Shown here: positions 7,042 to 41,716 of the stretch, piece by piece
Numbering within the stretch: the first letter of the stretch is position 1
How the letters are laid out: each line of letters starts with the position of its first letter
Source: Leptolyngbyaceae cyanobacterium
Lineage (GTDB): Bacteria > Cyanobacteriota > Cyanobacteriia > Phormidesmidales > Phormidesmidaceae
Assembly: GCA_965263355.1 (NCBI GenBank)
Contig: CBDHHL010000032.1
Location: 480,001-544,000 of the forward strand
Direction of reading: 5' to 3'
Length of the DNA stretch: 64,000 nt
Notes under the pieces: generated by a model
What the model was told of the DNA's origin: nothing
Databases searched by the model: none
The model's input: the letters and a program-made list of their open reading frames with translations, nothing else
Program-made: the position numbers and the translations under genes

Positions 7042-7953
7042 TTAGCGTAAACGCCAATACTCAACCAAACTCATGTCATGGTCCATTTTCATAACGTTGC
7101 GAGGATTAACAGCCTTGCCCTTGAAATAAACGCCGTAATGCAGATGAGGTCCAGACGAACGACCGCTATTGCCTAAGTAGCCAACAATATCGCCACGCTT
7201 AACCTTAACGCCAGATTCAACTGCAAGCTTGGACATATGGGCGTAAAGAGTTTCATAGCCGTAGCCATGTTTGATACTGACAGTATTGCCATAGCCACCG
7301 TAGTATTCGGCTCGACTAACCACACCATCTGCGGTGGCAAAGATTGCTGTGCCGTAAGGGCCAACAAAGTCGGTACCTTCATGGGTTTCGTACCCATAGC
7401 CACCAAATGGATTACGCCGTACTCCAAACTCAGACGAAATATCCAGGGGACCACCAATGGGTAATCCATCTGGGAAGGCGGAGACCTTGGCCTCTTCAGC
7501 CGCTAGTGTTTCTTCCAAAGCGGGTCTAATACTGCCGTCTAGCAGGCTACTTAGCTGAGGTAGCTTTTCACTGGCCTTCTCGTACAACTCAATACCACTA
7601 GCGACAACGGCCACCCCGCCCCGTGGAGAACCATCATCGGGAACAGTATCTGACTCACCAAGCTCAGGTAAACCGGCCCGTTCCCGCAAATTTTCAATTT
7701 CTGAATCTAAAGTATTCAGCTCAGTTAATACCTGATGGGCCTGATCCGTTAGCTGGCGATTTTCATCTGTAAGCTGAACATTGCTTTGAAACAACGAAAA
7801 GATAACGGCACCTAGCCAACCCAAGGGGACACCAAGCAGGACAAAGCCAGCGATTATTCCAGCGAGGGGAGTAAATGTAATCGTGACAGGGGTCTGCCCA
7901 GAACGTGTAACTAAAACCGTGTAACTTTTCAGCAATTGCCGACGCATAGGCAT
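7042..7953 (-). CDS. M23 family metallopeptidase
   Basis: TM helix, coiled coil, HEGTD, YAHM, SSGPHLHY. Confidence 0.95.
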   Translation of the reverse strand: MPMRRQLLKSYTVLVTRSGQTPVTITFTPLAGIIAGFVLLGVPLGWLGAVIFSLFQSNVQLTDENRQLTDQAHQVLTELNTLDSEIENLRERAGLPELGESDTVPDDGSPRGGVAVVASGIELYEKASEKLPQLSSLLDGSIRPALEETLAAEEAKVSAFPDGLPIGGPLDISSEFGVRRNPFGGYGYETHEGTDFVGPYGTAIFATADGVVSRAEYYGGYGNTVSIKHGYGYETLYAHMSKLAVESGVKVKRGDIVGYLGNSGRSSGPHLHYGVYFKGKAVNPRNVMKMDHDMSLVEYWRLR

Positions 7954-9603: not shown

Positions 9604-10155
9604 TTAGAAATCATCCAACACATCAAGATCAATATCCTCATCTTCAAGCATGTCGGACAGGGATGTTGGATTAGCATCAATGGGCTTAGGCGATGTTATG
9701 TTTTCAAACATAGCTTCATGGGCTTGGGCCGAGTGGCCATTGGTCGAGTGGCCATTAGTTGAATGGCCGTTAGCCGAGTGGCCATTAACTGACGCATAGT
9801 CATTATTTGAAGCGGCTGCGCCCCCTCCTCCCAGGGATTCACTCAACTTGGGCCCGTAGGCCTCGCCAGTTAAAAAATGTCGTCGGATCTGAAAAATTCT
9901 AAACTCCAGTTCGTCGATGGCATTGCGAGCTATTACTTGGGCTTCTTCTTTGGAGACATCGTCTTCATAGGCCCAAGGTAGATAGTAGGCTTTCAGTGCC
10001 CGCACGACCGACTCTCGCATGTTCACCATTTTGTTGTCGCGCAGATAGTTAACGATGCGCCCTTCAACGGTGTCAGGGTCAGAACTAATGCTAAAAGAAA
10101 CGCGTTTTCTGGTGGCAGGTACTTCTTTCTTAGGGGTGCTTTTCTTTTTAACCAT
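9604..10155 (-). CDS. Putative ParR-like partner of the adjacent actin-like ATPase
   Basis: Start overlaps the ATPase stop; basic N-terminus with a beta-strand then helices; disordered acidic tail with 4x15-nt NGHS(A/T) repeat at 9727-9786. Confidence 0.6.
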   Translation of the reverse strand: MVKKKSTPKKEVPATRKRVSFSISSDPDTVEGRIVNYLRDNKMVNMRESVVRALKAYYLPWAYEDDVSKEEAQVIARNAIDELEFRIFQIRRHFLTGEAYGPKLSESLGGGGAAASNNDYASVNGHSANGHSTNGHSTNGHSAQAHEAMFENITSPKPIDANPTSLSDMLEDEDIDLDVLDDF

Positions 10156-11263
10156 GACTCTTCCCCGCAGCAACTTTTTGGAACTTTAATGCCAGCCACT
10201 TTGCCCCACCATAACAGTCACAGAACCGTAACTGATCGATGTCTGCTTCTATCTCTAGATTGGCGGCGACTTCGTCCTGCAAATCTTCCAACCAGTTAAC
10301 GGTACAAAAGGTAGAGCGCTCTTCAAAGTATTCTTCTAACTCGTCCTCTAACTGGCTGGCTGTTCCACCACTAATCAGAACTTCATAGTTAGGCACACTA
10401 ACTGACGCTAGCCATTCATTCAGGCGATATTTCACTAGCTCCCAATAGTAGGCGGTGGCTTTTTCCTTACGGTCTGCTAGGGGATACGCTTTTTTAGGAC
10501 GATTGGGAAAGACGACTCGAGCTGAATTGTTGATCAAGGCATCATAGAGAAATGGATCGTCTGAATTGCAAGGCAGATCTTGGGCAACGGCTTTTAACAG
10601 TTGCTGATAGCCAAGGCGTTCAGTACTACTGGGTTCTCCCTGGGGCGGACGGCCACCGTTAAATAGCAAAAAACTCAGATCTCTATGGCCAAACATCAGC
10701 ACGACAAAGGTCTGTTTAGAGCGTTCTTTTTGTTGCGATCGCTGCACCTTGCGCCACTGTACTAAACCCGCCGCCTCAGGTAACACTTTCACATGGCCAA
10801 AGTCTAGAAAAATATCCCGACCGCGATAGGTAAACATCTTATGGCCCAGAATTTCATTGGTAAGGGCCTTATAGTCCGTCAGGTATTCATTAAACGGGAG
10901 GGCAATACCCACATCCAATGTCAGCCGTTCCAAATCATGCTGATGGGCAAACTCACCAATCACCCCCAGTGCCCGAATATGGGCCAGAGCACTTTTGGGT
11001 AAACTGCTGGTGGCCTTATTAGGGCGACCTTGAGCGTCGATACCCAAGGCGTAAGCCGGGGTCTCTGGATCGAGCTGTAGATAGCCGACTGATTCTAGGC
11101 CAGAGCCTATTTGTTCACCCTGCGCTTCAATAATGGCTAGCTCAGAAGGGGGCATATCCGCCACTAGAGGAGGGCACTGATAGGCATAGAACCGTTCGCC
11201 GTTATTAAGGACGGCCTTTGTGCCAGAGCTACCTAAATCGATAAAACATTGATATTTGGCCAT
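10148..11263 (-). CDS. ParM/StbA-family actin-like ATPase
   Basis: IDLGSSGTK (phosphate 1), VLPEAAG (connect 1), MFGHRD (phosphate 2 variant), ISGGTA (adenosine), RFCDCYG. Confidence 0.85.
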   Translation of the reverse strand: MAKYQCFIDLGSSGTKAVLNNGERFYAYQCPPLVADMPPSELAIIEAQGEQIGSGLESVGYLQLDPETPAYALGIDAQGRPNKATSSLPKSALAHIRALGVIGEFAHQHDLERLTLDVGIALPFNEYLTDYKALTNEILGHKMFTYRGRDIFLDFGHVKVLPEAAGLVQWRKVQRSQQKERSKQTFVVLMFGHRDLSFLLFNGGRPPQGEPSSTERLGYQQLLKAVAQDLPCNSDDPFLYDALINNSARVVFPNRPKKAYPLADRKEKATAYYWELVKYRLNEWLASVSVPNYEVLISGGTASQLEDELEEYFEERSTFCTVNWLEDLQDEVAANLEIEADIDQLRFCDCYGGAKWLALKFQKVAAGKSHG

Positions 11264-12293: not shown

Positions 12294-13284
12294 GGTAGTC
12301 CATTTTAGTAAAGGTCAGAGAAAATTAGGGGGTGAGCAGAGTCAATCAATCTCTCCCTAACCAATCGGTTGTACTCGTGGATGAAGGTCCAAATCGCACC
12401 ACTGTGGTTCTCCAGCTTATTCGAGAACGACAGTGGGTATCGCACCAGGCACGATACCCACTGTCGTAGCGTGTTGTTCAACCGCTCAATATAACTGGTT
12501 AATCCGCTATCTTTGTCCACCGCAAAGTGACGATTGCTTGGAATGATCGTTTCGTAAGCGTCCCAATGATCAGTGTAGACCTTGGCACACTGTCGGTAAA
12601 CACCGGGTAAGGATTGCCATAATTGCAGGACCGATGCCCGTGAACGGTCTCCGATATGACATCCCAGAATTTCTCTAAGTAGGTAGGCAAAATAACTTAC
12701 ACAAGAACTTTTCAAGGATGACACTTTTGAAAAGGCCCCCAACCCCCAATTCTGGGGGGCTTCGGAACTTAAAGTCCCCCAGAATTGGGGGATTTAGGAG
12801 GCTTCCAGGATTTTGAAATTAATTGTGCTCATCTATTTAGTATCTGCATCCGTCACCGGCCAGACCCACTGCTTATTGTCTTTGTCATCCAACAAACGAC
12901 CACAGTTCGTCTATCTGCACCGTCAGCTTGCCCTTGGGCTTAGGTACTACCGACGCACTTTCTTGGGAACCGTCGCATAGGTAGCGTTAACGTATGCTTG
13001 GAGCCATCGCTCTGAAACCTGGGTGACTCGGGCGATACCAGCCAATGGAATCTTCTCAAGCAGTAGCAAGTCGACCAAGCCAAAGGTGTCTTTATCTTTA
13101 GGTTTCCACTGAGGGTCTTCGACAAACTGTCGCCCTCAGTCCTTGCATTTGTAGTTCTGCTTGGCACGACGAGTCAGACCGTTTTTGATAATGTCATGGG
13201 AGCCGCAAGTCAGACACGTCATTCCCGTTTATTTGAGATCCTTTTGGGATTTTAAAGGCTAAGTCTGATATCTGATGCACCACT
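12294..13284 (-). mobile_element. IS1-family element, degenerate
   Basis: InsA-like MTCLTCGSHDIIKNG..KQNYKCKD* from ~13221; InsB-like YTDHWDAY, TSYIERLNNTLRQ; ends GGTAGTCC and GATGCACCACT; stops and an internal insertion. Confidence 0.9.
12676..12839. mobile_element. MITE-like insertion with TA duplication inside the IS1, carrying a GC-rich palindromic repeat
   Basis: TA-AGTAGGTAGGCAAAATAA ... TAATTGTGCTCATCTATT-TA; removal restores the transposase reading ADTREILG; internal CCCCCAATTCTGGGGG/CCCCCAGAATTGGGGG. Confidence 0.8.
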
Positions 13285-13328
13285 TACAAAAAGTTGTCAC
13301 AATGATAGCAACTGAATTTTACTTAACC

Positions 13329-13649
13329 TCAAGCAGCTAAAACCTTAGACTCAAATTCTTGTTGATCTATAAAAGTTTTAAAGACTCGATCCATTTTTGT
13401 TAGTTCAAAGATGATTTTGACCTGCTCTGTCAGGCCGCAAAGATAAATCTGCTTCCCTTTGGCTCGAACAAGTTTTAGCATAGCGACCATGGCACCAATA
13501 CCAGTACTGTTCATAAATGTCACCTGTTTCATATCTAACAGAAAAATATCAATATCCTGATGTAGTAAGTCACTTACTTGAAGCTTGAGTTCGTTAGTTG
13601 TAGCACCATCTAGAATGCCTGTTGGTTCAAGTTTTTTAAGGTTAGCCAT
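13329..13649 (-). CDS. STAS-domain anti-sigma factor antagonist (RsbV/SpoIIAA-like)
   Basis: G.LD, LDMKQVTFMNSTGIG (phosphoacceptor Ser retained), IFELTKMDRVF. Confidence 0.93.
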   Translation of the reverse strand: MANLKKLEPTGILDGATTNELKLQVSDLLHQDIDIFLLDMKQVTFMNSTGIGAMVAMLKLVRAKGKQIYLCGLTEQVKIIFELTKMDRVFKTFIDQQEFESKVLAA

Positions 13650-13803
13650 TGTCGAAAGGATCTCCTAAATTGCGACAGTAATGTACTGAAAGATATTAGG
13701 CTAGAAGCTGGGTGCCTCTGATTGTGGCACTTAGTTGTGTCGTAGGAACTACAAAAATACTTTTGGTGAATTTTGTAGAAAGAACGGCCTCAAAAGTTAT
13801 GGC

Positions 13804-16206
13804 TTAAGAGACTGTCTCGGGTTGCCAATAGGCTGCCCGGATAACAACCCAAAGTAACGCTAAGTGATAGCATCCCCATCCAACATTGACCAGGTATGTT
13901 AAGGGATCTGGCCATTGTCCTAAAATTAGCTGTATTAGTCCCCACAGCATACCTGCAATAGTAAGGGTAAAAACAATTAACTGTATGCGTACAAGCCCCC
14001 AAAACACCCCAGATTTTCGTTGCTTGGGTGTAACCTTAAATGAGACTTTTTTACCAGTCAAAACACTCCAAACAGCCTGAATTTGCAATGGAAAAAGAGC
14101 GATAGCATATTGTTCATTACGCCATATTTCTTGTTTGGGCACTTCCCATGCTGCAGCCAGTAAGTTAAGACGGTTAATCAGATAAGTTGGGGCAAAGTGT
14201 AGTATAAATGCTGGGCCATAACTAGTCACAGGGCTAAGCCCTGTAAAGAATGAAATAATTGGGCAGACTAAAAAGATAATTACAAAAAAGCCTGCAAAAT
14301 AGCTGTACATCGTCTGAAAATACTGAAGCCGTTGCCAGAATGTGAGACCTGACTTGAATAAAGGATTATCTCTGACTAGTACCTGTATGGTTCCTTGAGC
14401 CCAGCGTAATTTTTGGGTTAGCGTGGAACTGAGGTCGTCAGGGGCAAGTCCCTCTGCCAAAACTTCATGGTGATAAACAGATTGCCAGCCAGCTGAATGG
14501 AGGCGCATCGCTGTATTCATGTCTTCTGTAATACTAATGCTTGAGACTCCACCAATTAGATCAAATTCATCCAATCGGCTTTCATCAGCTGCAAAATCAT
14601 CAGCAAAATGCTGCAATCCCATACTCACCAACGCTTCTCGTCGTAAAATTGCATTAGTTCCGGTATAAAAGGCGGCATTCATGCCATCCTTAGCTTGTTG
14701 AATAGGGCCATAGAAAAAATGAGCGTCATGGCCAAAGGGATCACCTTTAGGTAAGTTGTAAAATGCCTGAGGAGTCTGCACAAAGGCAACTTTATTTAAC
14801 TCATAGCGCCCTTGATCCAAATTAAAGTGGAAAAAGTTAGGCAGTACCCGCTGCAAAAATTGCGGCTTAGGAATATGGTCTGCATCTAAAGTAACAATAA
14901 AGTCACCCTGGGTTTCACCACAGAAAATAGCATGGTTAATATTCCCTGCTTTAGCATGGTGAGGACGATCTTTAGGCTTTTTGCGGGCAATGTAGCGACA
15001 ACGAGCTAAATCACTTAAAGCAAAGGTTTTCTTATCAATTTGTGCCTCTAACTTACGAATATTTGCTTCCAGCATTGCAGTTGCAGTAGAGTTTTCTGAC
15101 TGACTGAGTAACAGCAGCTGTCGTAGGCTTTGTATGTGCCCTTGAGTTTGCCAAGATTTCGAGTCTTCTAAGGAATCCTTTGAAACAAATTTCTTAATCA
15201 TTATCAGACAGTTGCGATCATCGGGATCACGGACATATGCCAAATGATCTGCAAGCTGTCTCAAAATGCTGATGCCACGACCACGTTCTGCATCTTGATC
15301 AATTTCATCCGGTAGTGTTTGCAAATGTTTCTCAAAATCAAAGGGAGCACCTCGATCCCAAATTCGTATGATAATTGCGAAGTTAAGAATGACGACTTCT
15401 AAATCGATCGGAGTCTCTGATACCAGATGCTTGTGGGCATGACTGACTACATTATCGAATCCTTCACCTAATAAGGTTTGAGCTGAAAACCAAGCATCGT
15501 CAGGGATTATAGACTGTTTTAGGGTGCTAAACCAATCCATGATTGACTCTAATTCATTAAAATCGGTTTTCACTCGAATTTTTTGACAGCTGAGATTCTT
15601 TTCTACAGTTTCTAAATCCTGTCGTAGATACTGTATTTGCTCTAGACGGCTGCTTAAATAATAGCGTTCAGCCTCTATCTGTTCAGCTGTGAGCTGTAAG
15701 GCAGGTGACTTAAGGTCTAGAAGACAGAGTTGTTCTGCCATAGCTCGCATATCCGGAGAATTTCCATCATCCAGTATATAAATCCGCAGCTTATTGGCAG
15801 GATAGGCCATCTTTAAAGCCGATTCCGCCGTTTCTTTGACAATGTCAACGGGCTCACTATAACAAGTGATAAAAATATCAACAGTTGGATAGTTAGCTTT
15901 CGGTAACGTTGGGGTGAGTTGATCAAGGTTTTTGACCCGACGCTCAATCGGTCGCCATAGCCCAACTAAAAAAAGTACGCCGCCAACGAACATGTATACT
16001 TCAGCTAATACCAGCGGCACTGAAAACCAGAGAGCATCTGTATTGAGGGACTGAGTTAACCGCCACTGCAAATACCATGCACCAACAATTAGATTTACTA
16101 AAACCAAGTAACGAAAAAGTAAGGTGCGATCGCGCAAACGCACTTGGATATTGTTCATCAGTGGTTTCTGATCCAGCTGACTAATAAAGCTACTCATTAT
16201 CAACAA
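13804..16206 (-). CDS. Cellulose-synthase-like processive GT2 with inserted HATPase_c (RsbW/SpoIIAB-like) domain; no PilZ
   Basis: DDG, HAKAGN, DADH, QTPQ, TED, QKLRW, FKVTPK and TM helices. Insert aa ~208-340 has EGFDNVVSHA, IWDRGAPFD, ERGRGISIL. Protein ends just after the last TM. Confidence 0.92.
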   Translation of the reverse strand: MLIMSSFISQLDQKPLMNNIQVRLRDRTLLFRYLVLVNLIVGAWYLQWRLTQSLNTDALWFSVPLVLAEVYMFVGGVLFLVGLWRPIERRVKNLDQLTPTLPKANYPTVDIFITCYSEPVDIVKETAESALKMAYPANKLRIYILDDGNSPDMRAMAEQLCLLDLKSPALQLTAEQIEAERYYLSSRLEQIQYLRQDLETVEKNLSCQKIRVKTDFNELESIMDWFSTLKQSIIPDDAWFSAQTLLGEGFDNVVSHAHKHLVSETPIDLEVVILNFAIIIRIWDRGAPFDFEKHLQTLPDEIDQDAERGRGISILRQLADHLAYVRDPDDRNCLIMIKKFVSKDSLEDSKSWQTQGHIQSLRQLLLLSQSENSTATAMLEANIRKLEAQIDKKTFALSDLARCRYIARKKPKDRPHHAKAGNINHAIFCGETQGDFIVTLDADHIPKPQFLQRVLPNFFHFNLDQGRYELNKVAFVQTPQAFYNLPKGDPFGHDAHFFYGPIQQAKDGMNAAFYTGTNAILRREALVSMGLQHFADDFAADESRLDEFDLIGGVSSISITEDMNTAMRLHSAGWQSVYHHEVLAEGLAPDDLSSTLTQKLRWAQGTIQVLVRDNPLFKSGLTFWQRLQYFQTMYSYFAGFFVIIFLVCPIISFFTGLSPVTSYGPAFILHFAPTYLINRLNLLAAAWEVPKQEIWRNEQYAIALFPLQIQAVWSVLTGKKVSFKVTPKQRKSGVFWGLVRIQLIVFTLTIAGMLWGLIQLILGQWPDPLTYLVNVGWGCYHLALLWVVIRAAYWQPETVS

Positions 16207-16509
16207 AAAATAATTATGTAAGTGACTCTAGGTTCTCTAAATTAATTGCCTCTATATTTCCATGACTCTCAAGCTCTTGAATCACATTAAGATTGAAAGT
16301 CAATTCCTAGTAATGGCAGCAGTAGACGCCTAAGTTAACAATCATTTGTGGGGCAGTACTAATGAGTTTTCCCGTTAGTCTAAATGGATGAACAATATTA
16401 CTTTATTAACCCCTAGAACCATAATGTTTTATTATCTGATGAGGTTGTAGACATCATTATTAAGCCTTTTACTCAGAAGACTGGTACGCCCCATGAACAT
16501 GGGCAATGC

Positions 16510-18246
16510 TTAACCATTGTCACCGATCAATAAACCAATAAGTCCAATGAGCGAAGCATTATAGTCGATAGCATATTCATTCGTTGCATACGACTTCTCA
16601 TCATCTAAGTAACTCAATATACCTAAGCCTTTTGGAGCAATATTATCTTGAGCATCAGAATTCGGACCTCCAACGACTAGACCAGGAATCAGTAAGCCTT
16701 TAGCACGGGCAAATAGATGGTTTACATGACGTACTGGACGAGCCCCAATACCTGTCACAAAAGTTTGATTAAAAGGATTACGACCTAGTAAGAAATGAAG
16801 CTGATCTAACGCAGCAATTTGGTAACGCTGATCCTGACTAATCTGGTATGCATAGACTAGGGTAATCCCCTCTTCTGCTGCCAGTTTATTAGAGCCCCAG
16901 ATAAAACGATGATTGGCTAAGCGGTAACCGTTATTTTCGACCCTCGCTAGAATCTCATTAGCTCTTTCTAGTAACTTTTTGTCAATGATGGCTTGAAACT
17001 CTCGTGAAATAGGCTGCCGCTGCTGCAATCGGTAATCTACTAACGCTAACGGTGATAAATTTTTCCATTCAAATAAGGTATAGGGGATCTTGGGTAAATA
17101 GAGTTCTACATACTGTTGGTATTTTTTAGCTCCAGTTGAAATATAGAGTTCTGTAGCTGCCCAGAAACGGTCATCAATATCAGTGTTAAGACTCTCTTCT
17201 TGATCAATATCTGAACCCAAGTATTTTCCTGAACCGCTATCATCACTTTCGATCCAATCAACCTGCATAGTAGATTGATTCTCCAAGTATTGCCAGGCTA
17301 GGTTTGCAGCGGTTTGATATTGATTAGCAAGGTTAGAATCAAATGTTTCAAAGACTCGGGCGGCCATGGCCATGACACCAGCAAACTTACCTGTTTCAGG
17401 GGTAGAAATCCCATAGATATAACGAATTTGTCGATCTTCATCAGGTGCTAATCCAATGGGCCATTCTGTTCCAGAAAGTTTTCGATAGACACCCCCATCG
17501 GACCGCTGCATCCTTAACATCCAGTCCAGTCCAAATTTCATTTCATCTAGAATATCGGGAGTGCCGTTACCGCTTTCTGGAATTGTCAATTGTCTATCCC
17601 AAAATAGACTGGGATTTTGTTCATAAAGACTCAGAATACGGGCAATCGTTGTCGCAGTTGTGGCAACATACTTGCCATAATCTCCTGCATCATGCCAGCC
17701 TCCTGTTGCGTCGATTTGATCGCTTGCTTGGTGTAAGTCATCGGCACGAGCTAAGTTGTGATCGTATAAGTGACAAGGAGCGTGGTACAAACCTGTAATA
17801 GGATCGTCTAGAATGACGCCACAACGTTGTAAATAATAAGATCTTAGCAATGATATAAATGTTGCTTGGTATGCATTAGTAGAAATACTAAATGGAGCAG
17901 ACTCTACAGAACCTGCTCGGACTAAGTATTCTCCAGGTTGCCGGAAATCACTCAAGTCAACGGATTGCAAGTTATCTCCACTCAGATGATCAGCCTGTAC
18001 TACAGTAGGTGTATCTAGTTCACTTATCTGTCCATCAGTTAAGCTAACCAACTCCAGAGGGATACTCTTAGGAGCATTGGCTAAAAAGACAACTTTTGGC
18101 CATTGTGGATGATATCCCACTTGGTTTAATAATACTTTCATAGGAGATTTCGGAGACTGAGCTTGCCCTGAAAATTTTGTACTACAAGCAATAATTAGAA
18201 AAATTGCAATGGTTGTTAAAATTAGGAGTTTATAAATACGTTGCAT
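16510..18246 (-). CDS. GH9 endoglucanase, probable lipoprotein
   Basis: Lipobox IIAC; NQVGY Ig-like module; GGWHDAGDYGK; YLDDEKSYATNEYAIDYNA. Confidence 0.93.
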   Translation of the reverse strand: MQRIYKLLILTTIAIFLIIACSTKFSGQAQSPKSPMKVLLNQVGYHPQWPKVVFLANAPKSIPLELVSLTDGQISELDTPTVVQADHLSGDNLQSVDLSDFRQPGEYLVRAGSVESAPFSISTNAYQATFISLLRSYYLQRCGVILDDPITGLYHAPCHLYDHNLARADDLHQASDQIDATGGWHDAGDYGKYVATTATTIARILSLYEQNPSLFWDRQLTIPESGNGTPDILDEMKFGLDWMLRMQRSDGGVYRKLSGTEWPIGLAPDEDRQIRYIYGISTPETGKFAGVMAMAARVFETFDSNLANQYQTAANLAWQYLENQSTMQVDWIESDDSGSGKYLGSDIDQEESLNTDIDDRFWAATELYISTGAKKYQQYVELYLPKIPYTLFEWKNLSPLALVDYRLQQRQPISREFQAIIDKKLLERANEILARVENNGYRLANHRFIWGSNKLAAEEGITLVYAYQISQDQRYQIAALDQLHFLLGRNPFNQTFVTGIGARPVRHVNHLFARAKGLLIPGLVVGGPNSDAQDNIAPKGLGILSYLDDEKSYATNEYAIDYNASLIGLIGLLIGDNG

Positions 18247-21131: not shown

Positions 21132-24068
21132 CTATTCAATCATTGTTTGAAGGAGTCTTATTCCTTCACTAAGAGCCTCTTCAAGCTTTGGAATACAATT
21201 TTCAAGCACCATATTCCCAGCACGACTTTCATTCTCGATATCTTGACACAGATGTTGGACTGCAACCATGCCCAGTGCTGCGCTACTCGACTTTAAGGTA
21301 TGGGCCGCATAAGCAATTTGTTCAATATCTTGAGCATGTACAGCATTTTTAAGAGATTTTGCCAGCTGGGGACTTTCCTTTAAGTAAATCTCAACAAATA
21401 ATTTTAGATTTTCAGGCGTCAATCCACCTAAAGGAGCCAATGTCTTTTCTAGGATACTTTTATCCAGATAAGTTATCTGGTTATCAGTACCTAATACCGC
21501 TGAGGGTTCCTGGGAATCACCAAGTGTTTTATCAGAGGCGATATCCTCAAGCTGTGGAGCAGGATAAGAGTTTTCAATGGAGCAGCGTTCTAAAGCCTCT
21601 AGCAGTTCTTCAATTTGGAGAGGTTTACTAATATAGTCATCCATACCCGCTGCCAGAAATTTCTCCCGGTCTCCTGTCATAGCATTGGCTGTCACTGCAA
21701 TGATGTAAGGCTGCTCATCCTCTGACCATGATTGCCGGATGGCCTTTGTCGCGGCTAAACCGTCCATTTCCGGCATTTGAATATCCATCAAAATGACATC
21801 GTATGCTTGGCGTTTTAGACAGTCGAGTACCTCTAATCCATTGCTAACTAAGTCCGGACGGTATCCCAATTTAGCCAACCATTGCTGAGCAAGCTGTTGG
21901 TTCACCATATTATCTTCAGCTACCAAAATCTTACATGGCAACCTTTGGGCCATTGTACTATCTATCTGTTTGCCCTTGGTTACTAGGGGTTGGTAAGTTA
22001 CTTTACCCGTAATGCCATAGGTCAAAGCATTGTACAGATCATTTTGACGGCATGGCTTATTTAGAAAAACAGCAATTCCTGCCCGCAATGCTTTTTCCTT
22101 AAGATCATAAGTACGGACAGAAGTAAGCATTATCATTGGTAAATTAGGGCACTGATGCTTTAGTTTTGAAGCCAACGTTAGACCATCCATGCCCGGCATT
22201 TGCATGTCTAAAATAGCAACATCAAAAGGCCGTTCTATTTGCCCAATTACGCCTAAGGCCTCGTAGCCTGATCGAGCCGAAAATACATCCATCTCCCATT
22301 GTTCTACTTGATGAGTGAGGATCTTGCGATTAGTCTCATTATCATCCACAAGTAACAACCGCTTACCCTTAAGTTCAACTCTTGGCAGTTCTGAATTAAT
22401 CTCTGAAATAGCCTGGGCTTTGATAGTAAAGAAAAATTTTGATCCCTTATTCAGCTCACTCTCAACCCAAATATCTCCTCCCATGGCGTGACAAAGACGT
22501 CTACTAATCGCCAGCCCCAAGCCAGTCCCCCCATATTTACGTGTAGTTGATGAGTCAACTTGTTGAAATGCGTCAAAAAGCGACTCTACCCGATCTGCTG
22601 GAATTCCGATACCAGTGTCACTTACACAACAGCGAATAAGATATAGGGCTTTATCAGAAGTAGCCTCATCTGATATGGGCTCCGCAAAAACCCTGATCAC
22701 AATTTCACCTTCGTGGGTAAATTTAATAGCATTACCTAATAAATTCACTAGAATTTGGCGTAGCCTTGTTACGTCCCCAACCAAGCTCACAGGCACATCC
22801 AAATCAATCTGGTAGGCTAGTTCTAGCCGCTTTTCAGATGCCTTGGGTACAACTAAATCCAAACACTCTTCAATACAGGACCTTAAATTAAAAGGGCATT
22901 CTTCTAACTCTAGTTTGCCAGATTCGATTTTAGAAAAGTCAAGAATATCGTTAATAATACGTAGCAGGCTGTCACCACTATGACGAATAGTAGACGCAAA
23001 GCCAATTTGTTGATCATTGAGCTCAGTATCTAGCAACAGGCCCGTCATACCAATCACCCCATTCATGGGTGTACGAATTTCATGGCTCATGGTAGCCAGG
23101 AAATCACTTTTGGCCTGTGCAGCGGCTTCGGCTATATCTTTTGCTTCTTTAAGAGATTGTTCACGGGTAACTACCTCGTAGGCCATATGTTGAAAGGCAC
23201 GGGCAAGTTCTCCAGGTTCATCTGATCGTTTAGCAATAGGATTTAGAATAGTAAATTTCTGTTGCCAGTCGTCTAAAGTGGGAAGTGAACTTCCACGGAC
23301 CTGTTTTGCTAAATGGGTGAGTTTTTTCAGGGGGTGAACCACCTTCTGTTTTAGTAAGCGGTTCATAAGGAATATGATTGTAGCCATTATGCCAATAATG
23401 ATGGCCATAACCAGCTTCAGGTAATGGTACCCCTGCTGTAGTAACGTATCAGCAGGAATATAAATGGTTTGAGCAGCAACTACTTCGTTTAATTTCCAGT
23501 TATATCCTTGTTTACTGCCATAGGTCTTTATCATGCTTTGGGGAGCATCATCGACACGGCCATGACATTCTAAACAACTACTTTTCTTAATGGCTAAAGG
23601 ACGAGCTATATAAAAAAGCTCCTTACCATCCTGTTCTCGATATCCACTAAGTTCTTCAGGGGCATCATCCTGGCGAAAAGCATTGACTATATTGGTTTCA
23701 AAGTCATCTGCCTGGTCCCTAGGGTTTGATGGATTTAACGTCGCTTCTTTATATAGAAAATTACTATACTCAGGAGATTCTCGAAAATGTTCAAATACTT
23801 CTCTAGCACCATAGGCCGGTACAGTTTCTCTGATAAATGAGCTAGATTGAGCTAACTGATCAGCCAGTTGGGGTTTGATGCTTTCGCTTGTATAGTTCCG
23901 CACGGCATTCATGGTTTGAATCATCATATGTGCCCGTGCTTTGATCTCGACTTTGGCCAGCTGTTGCATTGCGCTAGAAAGTGCAAGGCCGCTAATGACT
24001 ATCCCACCAATAAAAACGATAGTAAAAAACAGTGTGAACTGTCTATTCAGCGTTTGATTTTTGGCCAT
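21132..24068 (-). CDS. Hybrid histidine kinase: DUF3365 (c-heme) sensor-HAMP-HisKA-HATPase-REC-REC-Hpt
   Basis: [13 protein letters not shown] and CLECH between two TMs; [17 protein letters not shown]; two D.QMP receivers; AHTLKSSS. Confidence 0.93.
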
Positions 24069-34449: not shown

Positions 34450-35778
34450 TTAGTTCTCGATCACATCTAAGATAGCTTGATTGCCAAGCGCCTTGTAGTA
34501 AATAATTTCTAAGATAAGGCCGTTAGTATTACCGGTTAAGATGGTGTTTATTTCCTCACTCTCTTCATAGAGACCAGCGTAGAATCCACCTCCGTCAGGA
34601 TCTTGGAGATCTTTTACAGCCTTGATTAGCTTTAAAGTATAAGGTTTTTTGGGAAATAGGTAATACCACCCAAACGCCGCTTTTGTACTAAGCGTGCGTA
34701 GTTCTGGATGGGGCTCATTTTCTTCTGTAATTACAGCCCATGGAGTTCCATTAGCATAAAGAGTGCTATAGAGAAAATGAGGAGCTTGATCAATGTTGTC
34801 TTCAGAGACAGCGGTGAGGTACCCTGTTTCTTTATATCTATTTTCCTGGGCAGCTAGGATGTCTTCTGCATACTCAGCCAGAGTTTCATCCCATCCAAAC
34901 TCAATGGCTTCTAGAATATAAGACTCACTAACTACATAGTTATTAGCGTCAGTTTCTTCAAAATTACGCTGGTCTACAGGGATTTTCACCCCGCTCACAT
35001 CTACCAGTTTCATCGGTTCTGTTTCTAGTGCCTTTGGAACCTCCAATCCCCAAAGCTCATAGCCACGGGCAGCATATTCTTCGTAACCAAGGCGGCCCTC
35101 CTGTACGGGTAAAAGTTTACCATTAGATTTAAAGACCGCACCATAGAGCTGGCCCTCTTTGATAGAACGAGGAAGTTGCCAACCCGACATCAGGTCAGAA
35201 ATCCAATTGTCATATTGGGGATGGCATGTGCGAATGATATGTAGGGCTGTAAGAAAGCGACCAATGTCTAAAGCCGACCAGCCTAATCCTTTTTTGGTGG
35301 GATTGTTTCCATAGTCTACCATCTCTCCGGTAGCACTGTTGTACACCTTATTGGGCAGTGCCCCCTCCACTAGCGGTAGCTCTCCAAGAGAGGTTAAAAA
35401 TTGATTGAGTTGCAGATCAAACTCACCTTGATCAATTAATCCCATCCATCGAACTGCATTCAAGGCCATTAAGTAATTACCTTGATCCCAAAGAGTCCCA
35501 GAGGGAAACTGATTGGCAGAGTTGGTAAATCCGGTTTCTGGTTGCCGATTATTGACAAAGTACTGCCAGGCTGCAGATGCATAGACTTTCTCTTGTTCAG
35601 TTAGAGGAGCGGTTAACTGGCCACAAAGGTTATTGGATGTCTCTTTTGCGGTTGCAGCTTGAGAATCAGACTTGGGACTGTCGATTTCAATGGTGCCACT
35701 AGTACAAGCTGACAAACCACCCATTACTAAAATAATAGCAAATAGACCTTTCAAAATTTGAGATTGATAGAAATTCAT
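34450..35778 (-). CDS. DUF3131-domain lipoprotein
   Basis: Lipobox LSAC; AWQYF..N..PETG, TLWDQG, LPNKVYN, GWSALDIGR, QEGRLGYEEY, NTNG.ILE. Confidence 0.85.
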   Translation of the reverse strand: MNFYQSQILKGLFAIILVMGGLSACTSGTIEIDSPKSDSQAATAKETSNNLCGQLTAPLTEQEKVYASAAWQYFVNNRQPETGFTNSANQFPSGTLWDQGNYLMALNAVRWMGLIDQGEFDLQLNQFLTSLGELPLVEGALPNKVYNSATGEMVDYGNNPTKKGLGWSALDIGRFLTALHIIRTCHPQYDNWISDLMSGWQLPRSIKEGQLYGAVFKSNGKLLPVQEGRLGYEEYAARGYELWGLEVPKALETEPMKLVDVSGVKIPVDQRNFEETDANNYVVSESYILEAIEFGWDETLAEYAEDILAAQENRYKETGYLTAVSEDNIDQAPHFLYSTLYANGTPWAVITEENEPHPELRTLSTKAAFGWYYLFPKKPYTLKLIKAVKDLQDPDGGGFYAGLYEESEEINTILTGNTNGLILEIIYYKALGNQAILDVIEN

Positions 35779-35783
35779 ATTTC

Positions 35784-37000
35784 CTAAGAGATATGCGCGA
35801 GTGGGTGACCGTTTTGAGTTTTGTACAACAAACTTTCAAGGATAATGGCGTTAGTATTGACATTGATCGCTTTGTTAGGACCAAGGTCTGGGTTCTCGTA
35901 TCGTCCTGATAGATACCCCTTGTGCTCATCGGCAAGGTTTTGCACTGCTTGTCTGAGGGTTTGGCAGTAATCGTTGTCGGGCAAAAGGCTACTCCAGGCA
36001 AAGGCTGCTTTTGCACTTAGAAAACGCAGATCAGGATGAGTGTTTCCTTTTACATCTGTTGCTGGCCAGGTCTGACCATCAGCATAAACACTGTAATAGA
36101 GAAAATAGGGTTTGCGATCCAGGGCATCTTCGTTTACTACAGTTAGTATGCCCGTGTTAGCATATCGATTTGCTTGAACCTGTAGAAGATTTTCAAGCTG
36201 GGGTTGAGTGGTATCAGGCAACCCTACTTCTATCCCTAAAAGTAAGTATGGATCATTGGTTAGATGATTGCTCGCTCCTGAAGAATTGAGATCGCGCTGA
36301 TCCACTATCAGGTCTACCTGATCAACAGTAACCCCCTGGGTTGGCGGGTTATAAGCGCTTTATCAGCTTCAATTCCCCATAGTTTGAAGCCATAGGCGGC
36401 ATATTGTTCATAACCTAATCGCCCTTCTTGCCAATACTGCAAACCATTACGGCCAGCTCCACTACCCCATAGCCAGCCATCTTTTACAGACTTGTTTAAG
36501 TCATAACGGGTCACGATGGTATTGATGCGATCGCGCAGCTCCGGATAATGGGTTTTAAGTGTGTATAAAGCCACCAGATATCGGCCCAAATCTAACGCAA
36601 ACCAGCCACTTGTCCCGTTGGGGTCAGGGCGATTACTTAATGTCCGCATGGTGGCTGTGTTGGTGCTATAGGCTTTATTCGGTAACCCTGTTGTCGGTAA
36701 GGGTAACTGTTCCAGAGTGCGTAACAGAATCGATAGTTTTTCAACCAATTCTGTTTCAGAAATTAGCCCTAGTTGACGAGCAGCATGGATTCCTAAGAGC
36801 GCACTCCCCTGGTCTCACCAGGTGGCCCAAGGCAGTCCATCAACAGCATTCACCAACCCGGTATCAGGATTCCAGTTATTCTCAAAATAGGTCCACGCTC
36901 GACGAGCCGCTACTCGATCCAGAGAATCTGCCATATGTTCCACACTGTCTAAGGGAAGAGACGGGCTAGCTAACTCAGATATCTCAAGAGATGGAGGAGC
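35784..37000 (-). pseudogene. Third DUF3131 domain, detached from the 39948 gene and disrupted
   Basis: Continues the upstream gene if the A8 run (37001-37008) were A9; TGA for Trp at 36815-36817; frameshift near 36352; the same DUF3131 motifs. Confidence 0.8.
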
Positions 37001-39948
37001 TTTTTTTTCTCCTCAATTAGGGCAATTTCTTCATTCAAACCTCTAGAAGTTTCAGCGATATTGGTCTCTCCTCCTTTAGCAACCCAGTATGCTCCCTGGT
37101 CATCGGCAACCATTTCGATGGTTGGTTGAGAGCCTTCGGGAAGGCCTAGCCCCAGTTCATCTCCGTCACGAATGGCATCCCACCACGGAGAGTCCATATC
37201 GTCATGGGGATAGATTAGAGGTTGCTGTTGAGTGTTTTTATGCAGTAAGGCTTGGAGAATTAGACTATTAGTGGAGCCCGTAAACCCAATGGCTCTACGA
37301 CCACCGTTTTCGTAAAAGCCCTCGTAATAACCAAGCTGTTGATTATACAAATCTAGAGTTGCTAGCCAAAGGTCTCGACCATAGTCACTATCAGGAAATA
37401 GGGTGTGATAGGCAAAGGCAACAGCTGTACTCACCACTCGAGAATGGGGAATAACGTCTCCATTATCGTCTACAGCAACCCAAGAACGACCATCGGAGAC
37501 AAGTGTACTATGCACCACATAAGGAGCTTCATTCACTAGGGTAGTTCCTGAAGCACTAAATATACCTGTGTGTTCATACCGAGTGGCTTCGGCCTGGTAA
37601 ATCGCGTCTACTAAGGCACTGATTTGGGGATCAAAGCCAAATTCTAGGCCATATAAGATAAAGGGTGTACTGGTGGTATTTAACAGTTCATTTCGACGAC
37701 GTTGCTCTGGCTGAGACCGATTAGTGGGAACTGCTTGTTCTTCTAGCTTAGTGGTGACATAGTTGCCGCCAACGGCTGAGCGAGAAGCATCAAATCCCCA
37801 CAGCTGAAAAGCCCGGGCGGCATATTCTTCATAGCCAAGGATTTCTGCAGGCTTGACTCGGATGCGATCTCGACCCCGATCATCCTGAGCCAAACGAGCA
37901 TTAGCAATACGGCCATTTCTAACCACTCGTAGATAAGACCAGTCCAAAGCTAACTTATCTACAACATCAGTATATTCGGGATGACAGGTTTTAAGTGTGT
38001 GCAAAGATGCCAATAGTCTTCCAATATCCAGGCCAGACCAGCCATCTCCTTGAGGAATGGAATTACCACCATAATCAATAGGTTCTAGAGAAAGGGTGCT
38101 GTAGGAACGATGAGGAAGCTCTCCAGCAAACAGTTCAATCTCCTGTAAAGCTCCTAGTAAATGCCGAATTCGTTCATCAAACTTTTTAGCATTAATCACA
38201 TCCATTGCCCGAGCAGCATGAAGCGATGCCAAATAATCTCCTATCCCCCAAAGAGTGACACCATCTAGATCACTACGATCAGGGACTAACCCTGAAGGAG
38301 TGTGGTTAGCTTCAAAATATTGCCATGCTGTTTTGGCATAACGCATATCTGTAACATTTAAAGGAGACACTACGGATGAGCAAGCCGAGGAGCGAGGTTT
38401 TTCCACCGGCTCAATAGCCGCAATCGTAACCCCCTCATGAGAAGCAGGCGGTGGTGGAGCAGCTGGAGCAGATTCCGCTGGTGGCGGTGGTTCAGGATTA
38501 CTGGCTGTTTCTGGAGGAGCTGCAGGTGGCGGTGGTTCAGCTGGTGGTGGTTCAGGGCTACTAGCTGTTTCTGGGGGTGGAGGTAAATCTCCTGTATTTT
38601 CCCCCGCTGGCACAGTAGGCACTGAAATAGGAGCACTGCCACTCGCCAACATGGGTATATAACCACGAGCTTTATAGTAAAGAATCTCCAAAATCAGTCC
38701 ATTACTATTACCAGTGAGAATATCATTAATAGGGGGCTGAGCATCATATAGGCCCGATTCATAAATACCTGCATAGTAACCCCGCCCAGAATTAGTTGTA
38801 TCCTTTACATGGTCAAAAATCTTGTGGGCATAGGGATCGTCAGGATAAACATAGCGCCATCCAAACGCAGACTTGGCACTTAAAGTACGCAGTTCAGGAT
38901 GCAGCTCATTATTCTCAGTAATAACGGCCCAGGGCACACCATTGGAATAGACGGTACTGTATAAAAAATAAGGAGCTTGATTAATATTGTCTTCGGAAAC
39001 AGCCGTTAACAGCCCAGTATCTTCAAAGCGTCGTTTCTGCGCTTCAAAGACCCTACGAGCATAATCTGCTTGATCTCCCTCCAGACCAAATTCAATAGCA
39101 TCCAGAATGTAAGACTCACTAACTACATAGTTGTTAGCATTTGTTGTCTGAAAATCCCTTGTATCGTACGGGATTTTTAGCCCATAAATATCTACAAAAT
39201 CAAACGGTTCATATGCGATCGCTTGAGGAGCATCAAATCCCCACAGTGCATACCCTCTCGCAGCATACTCCTCGTATCCTAAGCGTCCTTCCTGTACAGG
39301 TAGTGTACTATCGTCTGGCAAGACAGTAGCTCCATAGAGCATCCCATCTCTGACAGACGCCGCAATATTCCAGCTAGCAAGAATGCCAGCCATCCACTCA
39401 GAATACTGGGGATGACACGTACGTAAAATATGGAATGCTGCTAAAAGGCGACCGATATCCAGAGCTGACCAACCAATGCCTCGCTCTAATGGATTGTTAC
39501 CATAGTCCACCATCTCCCCAGTAGCACTGTTATAAACCTTGTTCGGTAGCGTATCTTCAAATAGACGCAGCTCTCCCAAACCAGCAAGAAATTTATTTAA
39601 TCGGCTATCAAACTCTCCCTGCTCAATTAACCCCATCCACCTAGCCGCATTCATAGCTGCCAGATAATTACCTAAGTCCCATAGCGTACCAGATGGATAA
39701 CCACCTGCAGAGTTGGACAATCCAGTGGATTCTTGAACATTATCCACAAAATAATTCCAGGCTGATTGAGCATAGCCCATTTCCTCTGGGGTCAGGGGTT
39801 GTGTAATTGCAGCACATTGCTCTGGACCATTTTGAGCCACAACGGGAGAGATCTGGAAAATAGATATCCATAGGGTAATAAATACTCCTACAAGCCAATA
39901 GGCAATAAATCTGATCCAGAATCGATGGCGAGTTAATAGTATTAACAC
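36970..39948 (-). CDS. Tandem DUF3131-domain protein (two intact domains, Pro-rich linker), C-terminally frameshifted
   Basis: Two copies of AW.YF, TLW..G.YL, GWS.LDIGR, GYEEYAAR; PPPPETAS repeats at ~38445-38585. Confidence 0.85.
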   Translation of the reverse strand: MLILLTRHRFWIRFIAYWLVGVFITLWISIFQISPVVAQNGPEQCAAITQPLTPEEMGYAQSAWNYFVDNVQESTGLSNSAGGYPSGTLWDLGNYLAAMNAARWMGLIEQGEFDSRLNKFLAGLGELRLFEDTLPNKVYNSATGEMVDYGNNPLERGIGWSALDIGRLLAAFHILRTCHPQYSEWMAGILASWNIAASVRDGMLYGATVLPDDSTLPVQEGRLGYEEYAARGYALWGFDAPQAIAYEPFDFVDIYGLKIPYDTRDFQTTNANNYVVSESYILDAIEFGLEGDQADYARRVFEAQKRRFEDTGLLTAVSEDNINQAPYFLYSTVYSNGVPWAVITENNELHPELRTLSAKSAFGWRYVYPDDPYAHKIFDHVKDTTNSGRGYYAGIYESGLYDAQPPINDILTGNSNGLILEILYYKARGYIPMLASGSAPISVPTVPAGENTGDLPPPPETASSPEPPPAEPPPPAAPPETASNPEPPPPAESAPAAPPPPASHEGVTIAAIEPVEKPRSSACSSVVSPLNVTDMRYAKTAWQYFEANHTPSGLVPDRSDLDGVTLWGIGDYLASLHAARAMDVINAKKFDERIRHLLGALQEIELFAGELPHRSYSTLSLEPIDYGGNSIPQGDGWSGLDIGRLLASLHTLKTCHPEYTDVVDKLALDWSYLRVVRNGRIANARLAQDDRGRDRIRVKPAEILGYEEYAARAFQLWGFDASRSAVGGNYVTTKLEEQAVPTNRSQPEQRRRNELLNTTSTPFILYGLEFGFDPQISALVDAIYQAEATRYEHTGIFSASGTTLVNEAPYVVHSTLVSDGRSWVAVDDNGDVIPHSRVVSTAVAFAYHTLFPDSDYGRDLWLATLDLYNQQLGYYEGFYENGGRRAIGFTGSTNSLILQALLHKNTQQQPLIYPHDDMDSPWWDAIRDGDELGLGLPEGSQPTIEMVADDQGAYWVAKGGETNIAETSRGLNEEIALIEEKKKLLHLLRYLS

Positions 39949-40540: not shown

Positions 40541-41716
40541 ATGAAAACCAATGCTTCTTCAATTCTACTAATAGATGACGATCTATTCTCACGTAAACTT
40601 CTGCAAGCAATGTTGCAAAAGGTAGGTTATCAAGTTATCGAGGCTGATAGCGGCGATAAAGGTCTGGAACTCTATCAGAAAATTTCTCCTGCACTAATTT
40701 TGCTAGACGCCAAAATGCCTGGCATGAGTGGATTTGATTGTTGCCGCAAAATCCGTCAACTTCCTGAAGGAAAACATATTCCTATTCTGATGGTGACTGG
40801 ACTTGAGGATCAAATGTCAGTCGAGGAGGCGTTTGCTTCTGGTGCTACTGACTATGTAACAAAACCTGTCCAAATGCCTATTTTAGCAGGGCGTGTACGT
40901 TATTTATTAAAAGCTTGGCAGGCCGAGAAAGAAGTTCGAGAAAGCAATGAACGGTTCCGGTTAGAGTTACATCGAGCAGCTGAATATGTGGAAGCACTTC
41001 TCCCTAATAACGATGATTCTAAAAAAAAGGAGAATATTCAGGCAAATATTCAGATCAACGTCCAGTATCAACCTTCGAATACCTTAGGTGGTGATGCTTT
41101 TGACTATGTTTGGTTAGATGATGAACATCTAATGTTCCATTTACTAGACGTAGCAGGGCATGGGGTTAAATCTGCATTATTATCAGTATCTGTTCTGAAT
41201 ATTTTGCGAAAACAGACATTACAAGGAGCTAATTTTTATAGACCTGAAACAGTTCTTGAAGCTTTGAATGGTGTTTTCCAAGTTAGTGATGATGGTGAAG
41301 ATTATTTCACTTTCTGGTATGGGGTTTATAACATTACTAACCGAGAATTAACATTTGCTTCTGCAGGTCACCCTCCTGCTGTGTTGGCTATGCCTGAGGG
41401 TGACGATTATAAGACCTGCTATTTAGATAGCGATGGTATTGCTATTGGACTGTTACCTGACTTTCCTTTTGATGTAAGGAAATTTGAAATCCCGGTTGGC
41501 AGTAGTCTTTATCTTTTTAGTGATGGAGTCTATGAGATTCCTATGGGAGATGACCATGAAATTTGGGGATTAGACTCTTGGACACAAGCTTTGAGAGGGC
41601 ATAAAGAGGCTAAATCTGAAAACCTAAAACCTTTGTTAGATGAAGCTTGCCGTATAAATGGTGGAACTAGTCTAGAAGATGATTTTTCAGTTCTCGAAAT
41701 TTGTTTCTTACAATAA
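40541..41716 (+). CDS. REC-PP2C (SpoIIE/RsbU-type) Ser phosphatase
   Basis: REC (IDDD, LLDAKMP, KP); GGDAF, DVAGHG, SAGHPP, SDGVYE, DDFS. Confidence 0.95.
   Translation: MKTNASSILLIDDDLFSRKLLQAMLQKVGYQVIEADSGDKGLELYQKISPALILLDAKMPGMSGFDCCRKIRQLPEGKHIPILMVTGLEDQMSVEEAFASGATDYVTKPVQMPILAGRVRYLLKAWQAEKEVRESNERFRLELHRAAEYVEALLPNNDDSKKKENIQANIQINVQYQPSNTLGGDAFDYVWLDDEHLMFHLLDVAGHGVKSALLSVSVLNILRKQTLQGANFYRPETVLEALNGVFQVSDDGEDYFTFWYGVYNITNRELTFASAGHPPAVLAMPEGDDYKTCYLDSDGIAIGLLPDFPFDVRKFEIPVGSSLYLFSDGVYEIPMGDDHEIWGLDSWTQALRGHKEAKSENLKPLLDEACRINGGTSLEDDFSVLEICFLQ

Follow-up and report, generated by a model that had tools for sequence, protein, structure and literature searches.

We analysed a 64,000-nucleotide stretch of the genome of a Leptolyngbyaceae cyanobacterium (contig CBDHHL010000032.1, positions 480,001 to 544,000; 'the window' in what follows), which encodes a cellulose-synthase-like glycosyltransferase of family 2 (GT2) with a serine-kinase domain of the RsbW/SpoIIAB type nested within it. 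We propose that this synthase, which is of the 'PCR-type' and lacks a PilZ domain, forms with its inserted kinase domain a hard-wired partner switch that operates without a sigma factor, and we give this reading a probability of about 0.6. An earlier note on the same DNA had suggested that the synthase is itself the node of a partner switch. The models and comparisons described here, among them every in-silico check named in the note, support that suggestion, and they point to a phosphorylation switch, rather than cyclic di-GMP (c-di-GMP), as the control of the enzyme. The positions of all features are collected in Table 1.

The synthase and its nested kinase domain

The open reading frame (ORF) of the synthase matched Pfam Cellulose_synt (3e-36) and three GT2 families, as well as NCBIfam CelA at 1.6e-92, the latter under that family's cut-off. 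When compared with solved BcsA using phmmer, residues 37–158 aligned with BcsA 61–178 and residues 410–792 with BcsA 205–561. The D, DxD, TED and QxxRW motifs of processive GT2 synthases are all present (DDG at residues 146–148, DAD at 441–443, TED at 560–562 and Q598/R601/W602), together with HAKAGN at 417–422, and every one of them was invariant in 20 and in 76 homologues; the earlier description of the D,D,D,QxxRW motifs as intact is thus borne out. The absence of a C-terminal PilZ domain, claimed at the same time, also held. PilZ was not among the eight Pfam families listed at E ≤ 1, and in the structural model the protein ends 8 residues past its last membrane helix.

The final AlphaFold2 (AF2) model, built from 76 sequences, had a predicted local distance difference test score (pLDDT) of 83.7 and a predicted template modelling score (pTM) of 0.74. 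It superseded a model from 20 close sequences in which the glycosyltransferase core (residues 461–606) had a pLDDT below 50. Two N-terminal and five C-terminal membrane helices are predicted, with a GT-A domain and a membrane channel as in BcsA. The model aligned with E. coli BcsA (9fmz_A) over 472 residues with a Z score of 34.0 and a root-mean-square deviation (rmsd) of 2.1, and with R. sphaeroides BcsA (4p00_A) with a Z score of 30.3 across chain residues 60–580, where the PilZ domain was not reached. Catalytic core, channel and D,D,D,QxxRW motifs are therefore shared with the c-di-GMP-gated enzymes (Z 30–34, rmsd 2.1–2.4, 472–482 residues), and the BcsA alignment stops at chain residue 580 shortly before the C-terminus of the window synthase itself. 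Unlike BcsA, however, the window synthase has no PilZ domain, and its putative regulatory module lies elsewhere and is of another kind. Judging from family membership and from the neighbouring GH9 endoglucanase gene, the product would be cellulose or a related beta-glucan.

Plant CesA, which aligned with the model at Z scores of 28–29 over 512–532 residues compared with 472–482 for BcsA, carries inserts in the same two intervals as the window synthase: the plant-conserved region (P-CR) and the class-specific region (CSR). The shorter insert before TED that had been assigned to the CSR position is present and amounts to 22 residues relative to BcsA. At the P-CR position, between DDG and HAKAGN, an insert of ∼240 residues had been reported; we found 251 residues where BcsA has 26. 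The coordinates reported for it were accurate, 15007–15729 corresponding to residues 160–400 and 15187–15585 to residues 208–340. The comparison with the plant P-CR and CSR is correct for position; the plant P-CR holds no kinase domain.

The insert was modelled with a pLDDT of mostly 85–94 in both AF2 runs, with residues 209–340 forming an alpha/beta domain. HATPase_c_2 (PF13581) matched at residues 219–338 with an E-value of 1.7e-15 and 57.6 bits, twice the curated gathering cut-off of 27.4. In a Foldseek search the matches following the cellulose synthases were all anti-sigma kinases: SpoIIAB (1tid, 1th8 and 1til; target TM-score (TMt) 0.71–0.73), RsbW (6m37, TMt 0.80; 6m36_C, TMt 0.84 and rmsd 2.2), a sigF anti-sigma factor (8jzt) and UsfX (8ih8). 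As a single sequence the insert gave only chance coiled-coil matches (E > 0.5) among PDB sequences. A profile of 24 inserted domains matched RsbW at 1.7e-10 and SpoIIAB at 2.4e-8, with the N-box, G1 and G2 boxes aligned motif by motif. Structural models and profile comparison together confirm the predicted RsbW/SpoIIAB-type fold (GHKL, or Bergerat) with its N-box, G1 and G2, which had first been recognised as a HATPase_c domain with these three boxes. The NCBIfam RsbW equivalog matched weakly (residues 247–350, 33.7 against a cut-off of 145), and the nested kinase is therefore not an RsbW orthologue.

The catalytic residues are almost completely conserved, which points to purifying selection. 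Among 47 inserted domains, 2 of which are truncated and do not reach the N-box, E248 and N252 were found in 45/45, D284, G286 and G311 in 47/47, and G309 in 46/47. They are also kept in those fused clades that have no adjacent STAS gene.

Fused and unfused forms across cyanobacteria

To see how far the architecture extends, we searched one genome per species, which gave 268 relatives, kept the best 80 loci and classified them by ORF and phmmer analysis. The kinase lay inside the synthase at 46 of the 80 loci; the other 34 encode a form of ∼660 residues without the kinase. A separate kinase ORF was present at 21 of the 34 unfused loci and at none of the 46 fused ones. By these counts, fused domain and separate kinase gene replace each other.

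The fusion is not confined to this assembly. Besides the 46 loci, a search with just the insert gave 31 protein clusters, 30 of which were 726–802 residues long and combined PF13581 with GT2 families; all clusters with an organism name were cyanobacterial, and the database names were merely generic. Of 401 cyanobacterial genomes sampled evenly, 3 (the centre genome among them) had the full insert, in a frame of 786–812 residues. Therefore, the fused form is uncommon, though spread over several orders. At one of the 46 loci, in a Leptolyngbyaceae metagenome-assembled genome (L017:5977-8355), the fused synthase is split into two ORFs by an in-frame stop at 7138–7140, which is either a pseudogene mutation or a sequencing error.

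In the alignment, the ∼660-residue proteins retain both helical arms of the insert and lack only residues ∼208–345, in place of which they have a short loop. The kinase was therefore placed at the tip of a pre-existing hairpin, which is helical and cytosolic. The window synthase is 54–61% identical to ∼660-residue proteins of Nostoc, Nodularia and Pseudanabaena, and 59–60% identical to homologues from Nostoc spp. with the published alr3757-type gene order. From architecture and gene order, we read the ∼660-residue form as the published PCR-type cyanobacterial cellulose synthase (alr3757, Npun_F1469, SynPCC7002_A2118), which is described, in the portions of a 2025 review available here, as having no PilZ domain and, between U1 and U2, a plant-like insertion, with a family member reported to make cellulose (PMC12430437). 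The window synthase likewise lacks PilZ and has its insertion between U1 (DDG) and U2 (DAD), to which it adds about 135 residues, a whole RsbW-type kinase at the tip of the hairpin.

The gene order at unfused loci is informative. In Nostoc (L049), Nodularia (L046) and Pseudanabaena (L071), the synthase gene, with DUF3131 nearby, is followed by genes for STAS, for a PP2C phosphatase with a response-regulator domain (REC-PP2C) on the opposite strand, for a HATPase_c_2 protein of 138–142 residues and for a hybrid histidine kinase. These neighbours match the published names alr3758 (STAS), alr3760 (kinase) and alr3761 (histidine kinase). According to the available parts of the literature, alr3758 of Anabaena is an anti-sigma antagonist (PMC4192349), Alr3760 is listed simply as one of five candidate serine kinases tested, while the interactors named are the other proteins All2284 and Alr3423 (PMC13555669), and alr3760–alr3761 form an operon with a sensor kinase.

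In the unfused genomes searched, the cluster-linked kinases also resemble the nested domain most closely. In all three unfused genomes searched, the cluster-linked kinase was the best genome-wide match to the window domain (1e-31, 3.5e-33 and 1.4e-27, versus 4e-19, 1e-19 and 2e-21 for the next paralogues), a lead of 6 to 14 orders of magnitude. In Leptolyngbya PCC 7375, where the synthase is fused, the next kinase paralogue matched at merely 2.4e-15. The tree of the kinase domain (75 rows, 133 columns), which is weakly resolved, placed nine paralogues outside the inserted and cluster-linked kinases and required one change for the inserted domains (support 77). We also noted that Ser occupies the position of the G1-box aspartate (D284) in 14 of the 21 stand-alone cluster kinases, whereas the inserted domains have Asp in 47/47.

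The STAS protein and the proposed partner switch

The gene next to the synthase encodes a STAS protein, as had been stated earlier; both its Pfam match and its TIGR00377 score, which exceeds the cut-off, agree with this. Linkage holds among the homologues, a STAS gene lying on the same strand within 1.1 kb after the synthase at 31 of the 46 fused loci and at 31 of the 34 unfused ones. The predicted acceptor serine was retained in 32/32 STAS proteins of the fused type and 31/31 of the unfused type (63/63 in total). A scan for promoters and terminators across 12700–16700 gave no more than chance signals, and the gap between synthase and STAS held nothing resembling a terminator. Because the unfused clusters contain a stand-alone kinase and mostly a STAS gene, the fusion would hard-wire a sigma-less partner-switching module to the synthase.

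We modelled residues 203–346 together with the STAS protein in three runs, alongside three controls, using our own alignments as input. The complex had an interface score (ipSAE) of 0.70 (runs 0.70, 0.75 and 0.66), compared with 0.01 for the best of the controls. Of the solved complexes, 116 of 157 reach the mark applied to this score, as do 2 of 215 mismatched pairs; these figures are rough here as own alignments were used. The runs shared at least 94% of contacts, with a pLDDT of at least 91 for the partner. In the model Ser48 of STAS is placed on the N-box, in contact with E248, D251 and I314, and the ATP lid (residues 304–311) lies within the interface. Like complexes have already been solved, and passing the controls therefore indicates likeness and is not proof that this copy binds. 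The predicted geometry is shared with RsbW–RsbV (6m36, 6m37) and SpoIIAB–SpoIIAA (1th8, 1tid), as are the fold, the N-box, the G1 and G2 boxes and a STAS partner with an acceptor serine. In contrast to RsbW and SpoIIAB, the window kinase is not a free dimeric protein, has no linked sigma factor and sits in a membrane enzyme.

One pair of residues in contact in the model varied in step. Kinase position 251 and STAS position 47 are D with N at 29 of 32 fused loci, and T, A or I with D at 20 of 21 unfused loci; D with D was found at 0/53. This pattern, a swap of charge at a predicted contact, fits a real contact, although it stems from very few evolutionary events.

On this basis, a cycle of three steps can be proposed in which the synthase would occupy the role that the sigma factor has in Bacillus. 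Unphosphorylated STAS would bind the embedded kinase domain and alter the state of the synthase; the kinase would then phosphorylate Ser48, releasing STAS; and the REC-PP2C, driven by hybrid histidine kinases, would regenerate STAS. Domain identity, fold, the conservation of the ATP-binding residues and of the acceptor serine, gene linkage and the complementary occurrence of fused and unfused forms are in-silico findings; STAS binding, STAS phosphorylation and an effect on synthesis are inferred. The domain on the hairpin between DDG and HAKAGN could act by shifting the hairpin against the nucleotide-binding face, or via dimerisation. The nearest published module is HenR/All4160/Alr3423 of Anabaena PCC 7120, in which a sigma-less set of STAS, RsbW-like kinase and REC-PP2C is proposed, in the available text, to act directly on a polysaccharide glycosyltransferase (PMC13555669; 10.64898/2026.04.08.717354), phosphorylation of All4160 being inhibitory (10.64898/2026.04.08.717354). 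There, it is STAS that is joined to the enzyme, a sugar transferase of the Bac_transf type, and the kinase stands alone, whereas in the window the kinase is nested in a processive GT2 enzyme and STAS is a separate protein of 106 residues, unlike STAS–transferase fusions of the All4160/XssP type. By analogy with All4160, unphosphorylated STAS might activate the synthase, a direction of effect that we put forward tentatively. A broader generalisation, which we consider speculative and rather doubtful, is that in all PCR-type synthases the hairpin at the P-CR position docks an RsbW-type kinase as an 'anti-synthase', that the fusion is the same complex made covalent, and that a STAS/PP2C switch fed by two-component signalling replaced c-di-GMP and PilZ as the master control in this lineage. 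The lineage is presumably the one discussed as closest to plant CesA.

Other roles for the nested domain have to be weighed. It could be a membrane-tethered anti-sigma factor that sequesters an alternative sigma factor until STAS frees it, with the synthase as anchor or sensor and transcription as the output. The closest structural and sequence relatives are indeed true anti-sigma factors (SpoIIAB, RsbW and UsfX), and Anabaena alr3758, beside alr3757, has been interpreted as an antagonist that acts on sigma factors of heterocysts (PMC4192349, as far as its available text goes). However, no sigma-factor gene was found among the ORFs of at least 100 residues in the window or among the 57 neighbours annotated with Pfam at nine loci (a result that does not bear on whether the domain binds one), the linkage is to the synthase in fused and unfused forms alike, and Anabaena offers a precedent for a module of this kind controlling a glycosyltransferase directly (PMC13555669; 10.64898/2026.04.08.717354, in the parts available). 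We therefore consider a tethered anti-sigma factor unlikely.

Plant CesA is regulated by phosphorylation, and an active kinase might have the synthase itself or another cluster protein as its main substrate, with STAS as a competing pseudo-substrate or regulator. The retention of catalytic residues even in clades with no adjacent STAS gene would agree with this. The invariance of the STAS acceptor serine and its placement on the catalytic Glu in the complex model argue against it, as does the family's known action on STAS partners (10.64898/2026.04.08.717354, from the portion available), and we regard another main substrate as improbable.

A structural module is improbable to the same degree. 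RsbW/SpoIIAB-type proteins are dimers and the plant P-CR joins CesA trimers, so that a domain held at the P-CR position by a long helical hairpin could join synthase subunits and bind ATP with no signalling role; 12 fused loci with adequate downstream sequence but no neighbouring STAS gene would be in keeping with it. A near-invariant catalytic Glu, Mg-binding Asn and G boxes would not be expected of such a module, and unlinked STAS genes were found in both of the STAS-less fused genomes searched. An assembly chimera or annotation artefact, in favour of which no evidence emerged, has a negligible probability and was rejected, since the frame is unbroken and the same architecture occurs at the 46 loci, from different assemblies (one a complete genome), and in the 30 protein clusters.

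Several observations weigh against the partner-switch reading of the synthase. The contrast between fused and unfused forms stems from few evolutionary events: on a tree of 76 synthase sequences with the kinase columns removed (leaving out L017, which is split, and L029, L042, L043 and L045, with ORFs shorter than 640 residues), the fused state needs 2 changes, of which well-supported branches force 1. No kinase gene was found at 13 of the 34 unfused loci, 8 of which have about 6 kb of downstream sequence and 5 less than 2.2 kb. Stand-alone kinases of this kind are common (137 of the 401 cyanobacterial genomes sampled gave a match at E ≤ 1e-10), and the tree of the domain has poor resolution. 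The second Gly of the canonical DxGxG G1 box is not conserved. The complex may have passed its controls through the model's memory of the solved RsbV–RsbW and SpoIIAA–SpoIIAB complexes. The window REC-PP2C is separated from the synthase by 24 kb and shares just 35–38% identity with the cluster-linked ones. Finally, 15 of the 46 fused loci have no downstream STAS gene, and at 12 of these the sequence runs on for at least 1.4 kb.

Among those 15 loci, the 3 others have less than 0.8 kb downstream, and the 12 belong mainly to Acaryochloris, Pleurocapsa and Thermosynechococcus-like clades. The two fused genomes of this kind that were searched each have an unlinked STAS gene, whose product is 51% identical to the window STAS protein and has the same NS motif; one of these genes adjoins a PAS-PP2C gene. 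In Acaryochloris marina (G001), a second STAS gene and a stand-alone kinase gene lie 1.4 kb apart at C1:1124906-1127010, far from the fused synthase. This kinase is 40% identical to the window kinase domain, and the pair is probably a separate partner switch.

Gene neighbourhood and significance

Table 1. Positions of the synthase, its parts and associated genes in the window (nucleotide coordinates; aa, residues of the encoded protein)
Feature	Position	Strand	Basis
PCR-type cellulose-synthase-like GT2 without PilZ, with nested kinase domain, 800 aa	13804..16206	-	single unbroken ORF, Pfam, NCBIfam
22-residue insert before TED, plant CSR position (aa 528-546 and 548-550)	14557..14625	-	BcsA gaps of 19 and 3 residues (phmmer)
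Whole insert, aa 159-409, DDG-HAKAGN interval (plant P-CR position)	14980..15732	-	length compared with BcsA (phmmer)
Outgoing helical arm, aa 168-208	15583..15705	-	one 41-residue helix, pLDDT about 90; present in unfused homologues too
RsbW/SpoIIAB-type HATPase_c_2 serine-kinase domain, aa 209-340	15187..15582	-	Pfam, Foldseek, profile search
N-box, E248-H258 (E248..N252..H256-A-H258)	15433..15465	-	aligns with RsbW and SpoIIAB N-box
G1 box, D284-x-G286...D290	15337..15357	-	conservation in inserted domains
G2 box / ATP lid, A306-E-R-G-R-G311 (G309-R-G311)	15274..15291	-	conservation; residues 304-311 in predicted STAS interface
Return arm, helices aa 349-368 and 375-398	15013..15162	-	AF2 models; unfused homologues align here with their own return arm
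STAS anti-sigma-antagonist-type protein, 106 aa, 154 nt downstream of synthase	13329..13649	-	PF01740 5e-17; TIGR00377 64.7 bits vs cut-off 53.45
Codon of Ser48, predicted phospho-acceptor (motif FMNSTGIG)	13506..13508	-	conservation, complex model
Response-regulator PP2C (SpoIIE-type) phosphatase, candidate third switch component	40541..41716	+	Pfam SpoIIE 3.3e-39, Response_reg 4.9e-26
Hybrid histidine kinase (Tll0287-like sensor, HisKA, HATPase_c, 2 REC, Hpt), candidate REC-PP2C input	21132..24068	-	Pfam
GH9 endoglucanase directly upstream of synthase	16510..18246	-	Glyco_hydro_9 9.6e-79
DUF3131 genes (one apparently split)	34450..39948	-	directly upstream of synthase in other genomes

An acceptor-serine STAS protein, a GHKL serine kinase and a PP2C phosphatase are all encoded within the window, and are tightly clustered in L046, L049 and L071. 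The REC-PP2C gene lies between STAS and kinase at those three loci and after STAS in L036 and L023, and it accompanies the stand-alone kinase at all four unfused loci annotated. Over its full length, the window REC-PP2C is 38% and 35% identical to the cluster-linked proteins of L049 and L071, respectively. Hybrid histidine kinase genes flank the cluster in L004, L014, L046, L049 and L071. L023, L036, L041, L049 and L072 have a pair of DUF3131 genes upstream of the synthase, and L046 has them close by but on the other strand; nothing in the PDB sequences matched DUF3131, and the papers found to name it appeared, by their listing, to be unrelated. L041 likewise has a GH9 gene after its fused synthase.

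In the window itself, GH9, GH2, hybrid kinase and GH16/RTX genes separate the synthase from the DUF3131/PP2C block. An IS1-type transposase fragment (12305–12742, minus strand) lies just downstream of STAS, and the REC-PP2C and DUF3131 genes are 18–25 kb from the synthase where other genomes have them adjacent; together, these features suggest a rearrangement. Between two intact DUF3131 genes, the ORFs 35784–36305 and 36314–36748 (minus strand) match positions 205–366 and 58–191 of the DUF3131 profile, and look like one gene broken by a stop or frameshift. A GH16 domain fused to RTX repeats is encoded at 24292–25984 (minus strand), and a 1799-residue protein with 46 RTX-repeat matches at 28249–33648 (plus strand); in L041 and L004, too, the fused synthase has GH16/RTX and RTX proteins as flanking neighbours.

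Further genes were noted in the region. A 446-residue protein with no significant Pfam family (26593–27933, plus strand) is 45% identical to an unannotated neighbour of 418 residues in the Nodularia cluster (L046:4304-5557). Both proteins end in K-F, as outer-membrane barrels often do, and the 446-residue protein may be the exit pore of the system. Genes for a REC-GGDEF protein (46720–47727, plus strand) and a REC-GGDEF-EAL protein (50643–52394, minus strand) are found in the same signalling-rich region as the PilZ-less synthase. An actin-like (ALP_N) protein at 10148–11263 (minus strand), scoring 26.2 bits against a Pfam cut-off of 26.3, overlaps a 189-residue acidic repeat protein at 9604–10173 (minus strand), the two resembling a plasmid-type segregation pair.

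Partner switching at a polysaccharide locus, with something other than a known sigma factor as its output, has been described for the syp locus of Vibrio fischeri (10.64898/2026.04.08.717354, in the part available). The syp kinase lies outside any synthase, whereas the window kinase lies inside one. The syp partner-switch components are SypE/SypA.

PCR-type synthases are already known, as is, from the available text of 2026 work on STAS-fused All4160, a partner-switch-like control of a cyanobacterial glycosyltransferase. The interaction partners and mechanism of the PCR-type synthase were named as an open gap in the 2025 review, the available portions of which mention neither kinase nor STAS nor anti-sigma (PMC12430437). 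Our literature search found no published kinase or partner switch tied to a cyanobacterial cellulose synthase; among the matches listed, only the Anabaena HenR preprint bore on the topic, and a few further papers looked unrelated from their titles and the openings of their abstracts.

The fusion acts as a Rosetta stone, in that it would assign to the enzyme the genes for STAS, kinase and phosphatase that neighbour alr3757-type synthases. In the parts of the sources available, these genes have so far been read as sigma-factor regulators or merely as candidates (PMC13555669; PMC4192349). It yields a testable model for the post-translational control of cellulose synthesis without c-di-GMP, and would widen the recently reported control of glycosyltransferases by partner switching to include a processive synthase, in which the fusion topology is reversed. 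The window synthase would also offer structural studies a one-polypeptide system in which a regulatory module at the P-CR position may act on the catalytic core.

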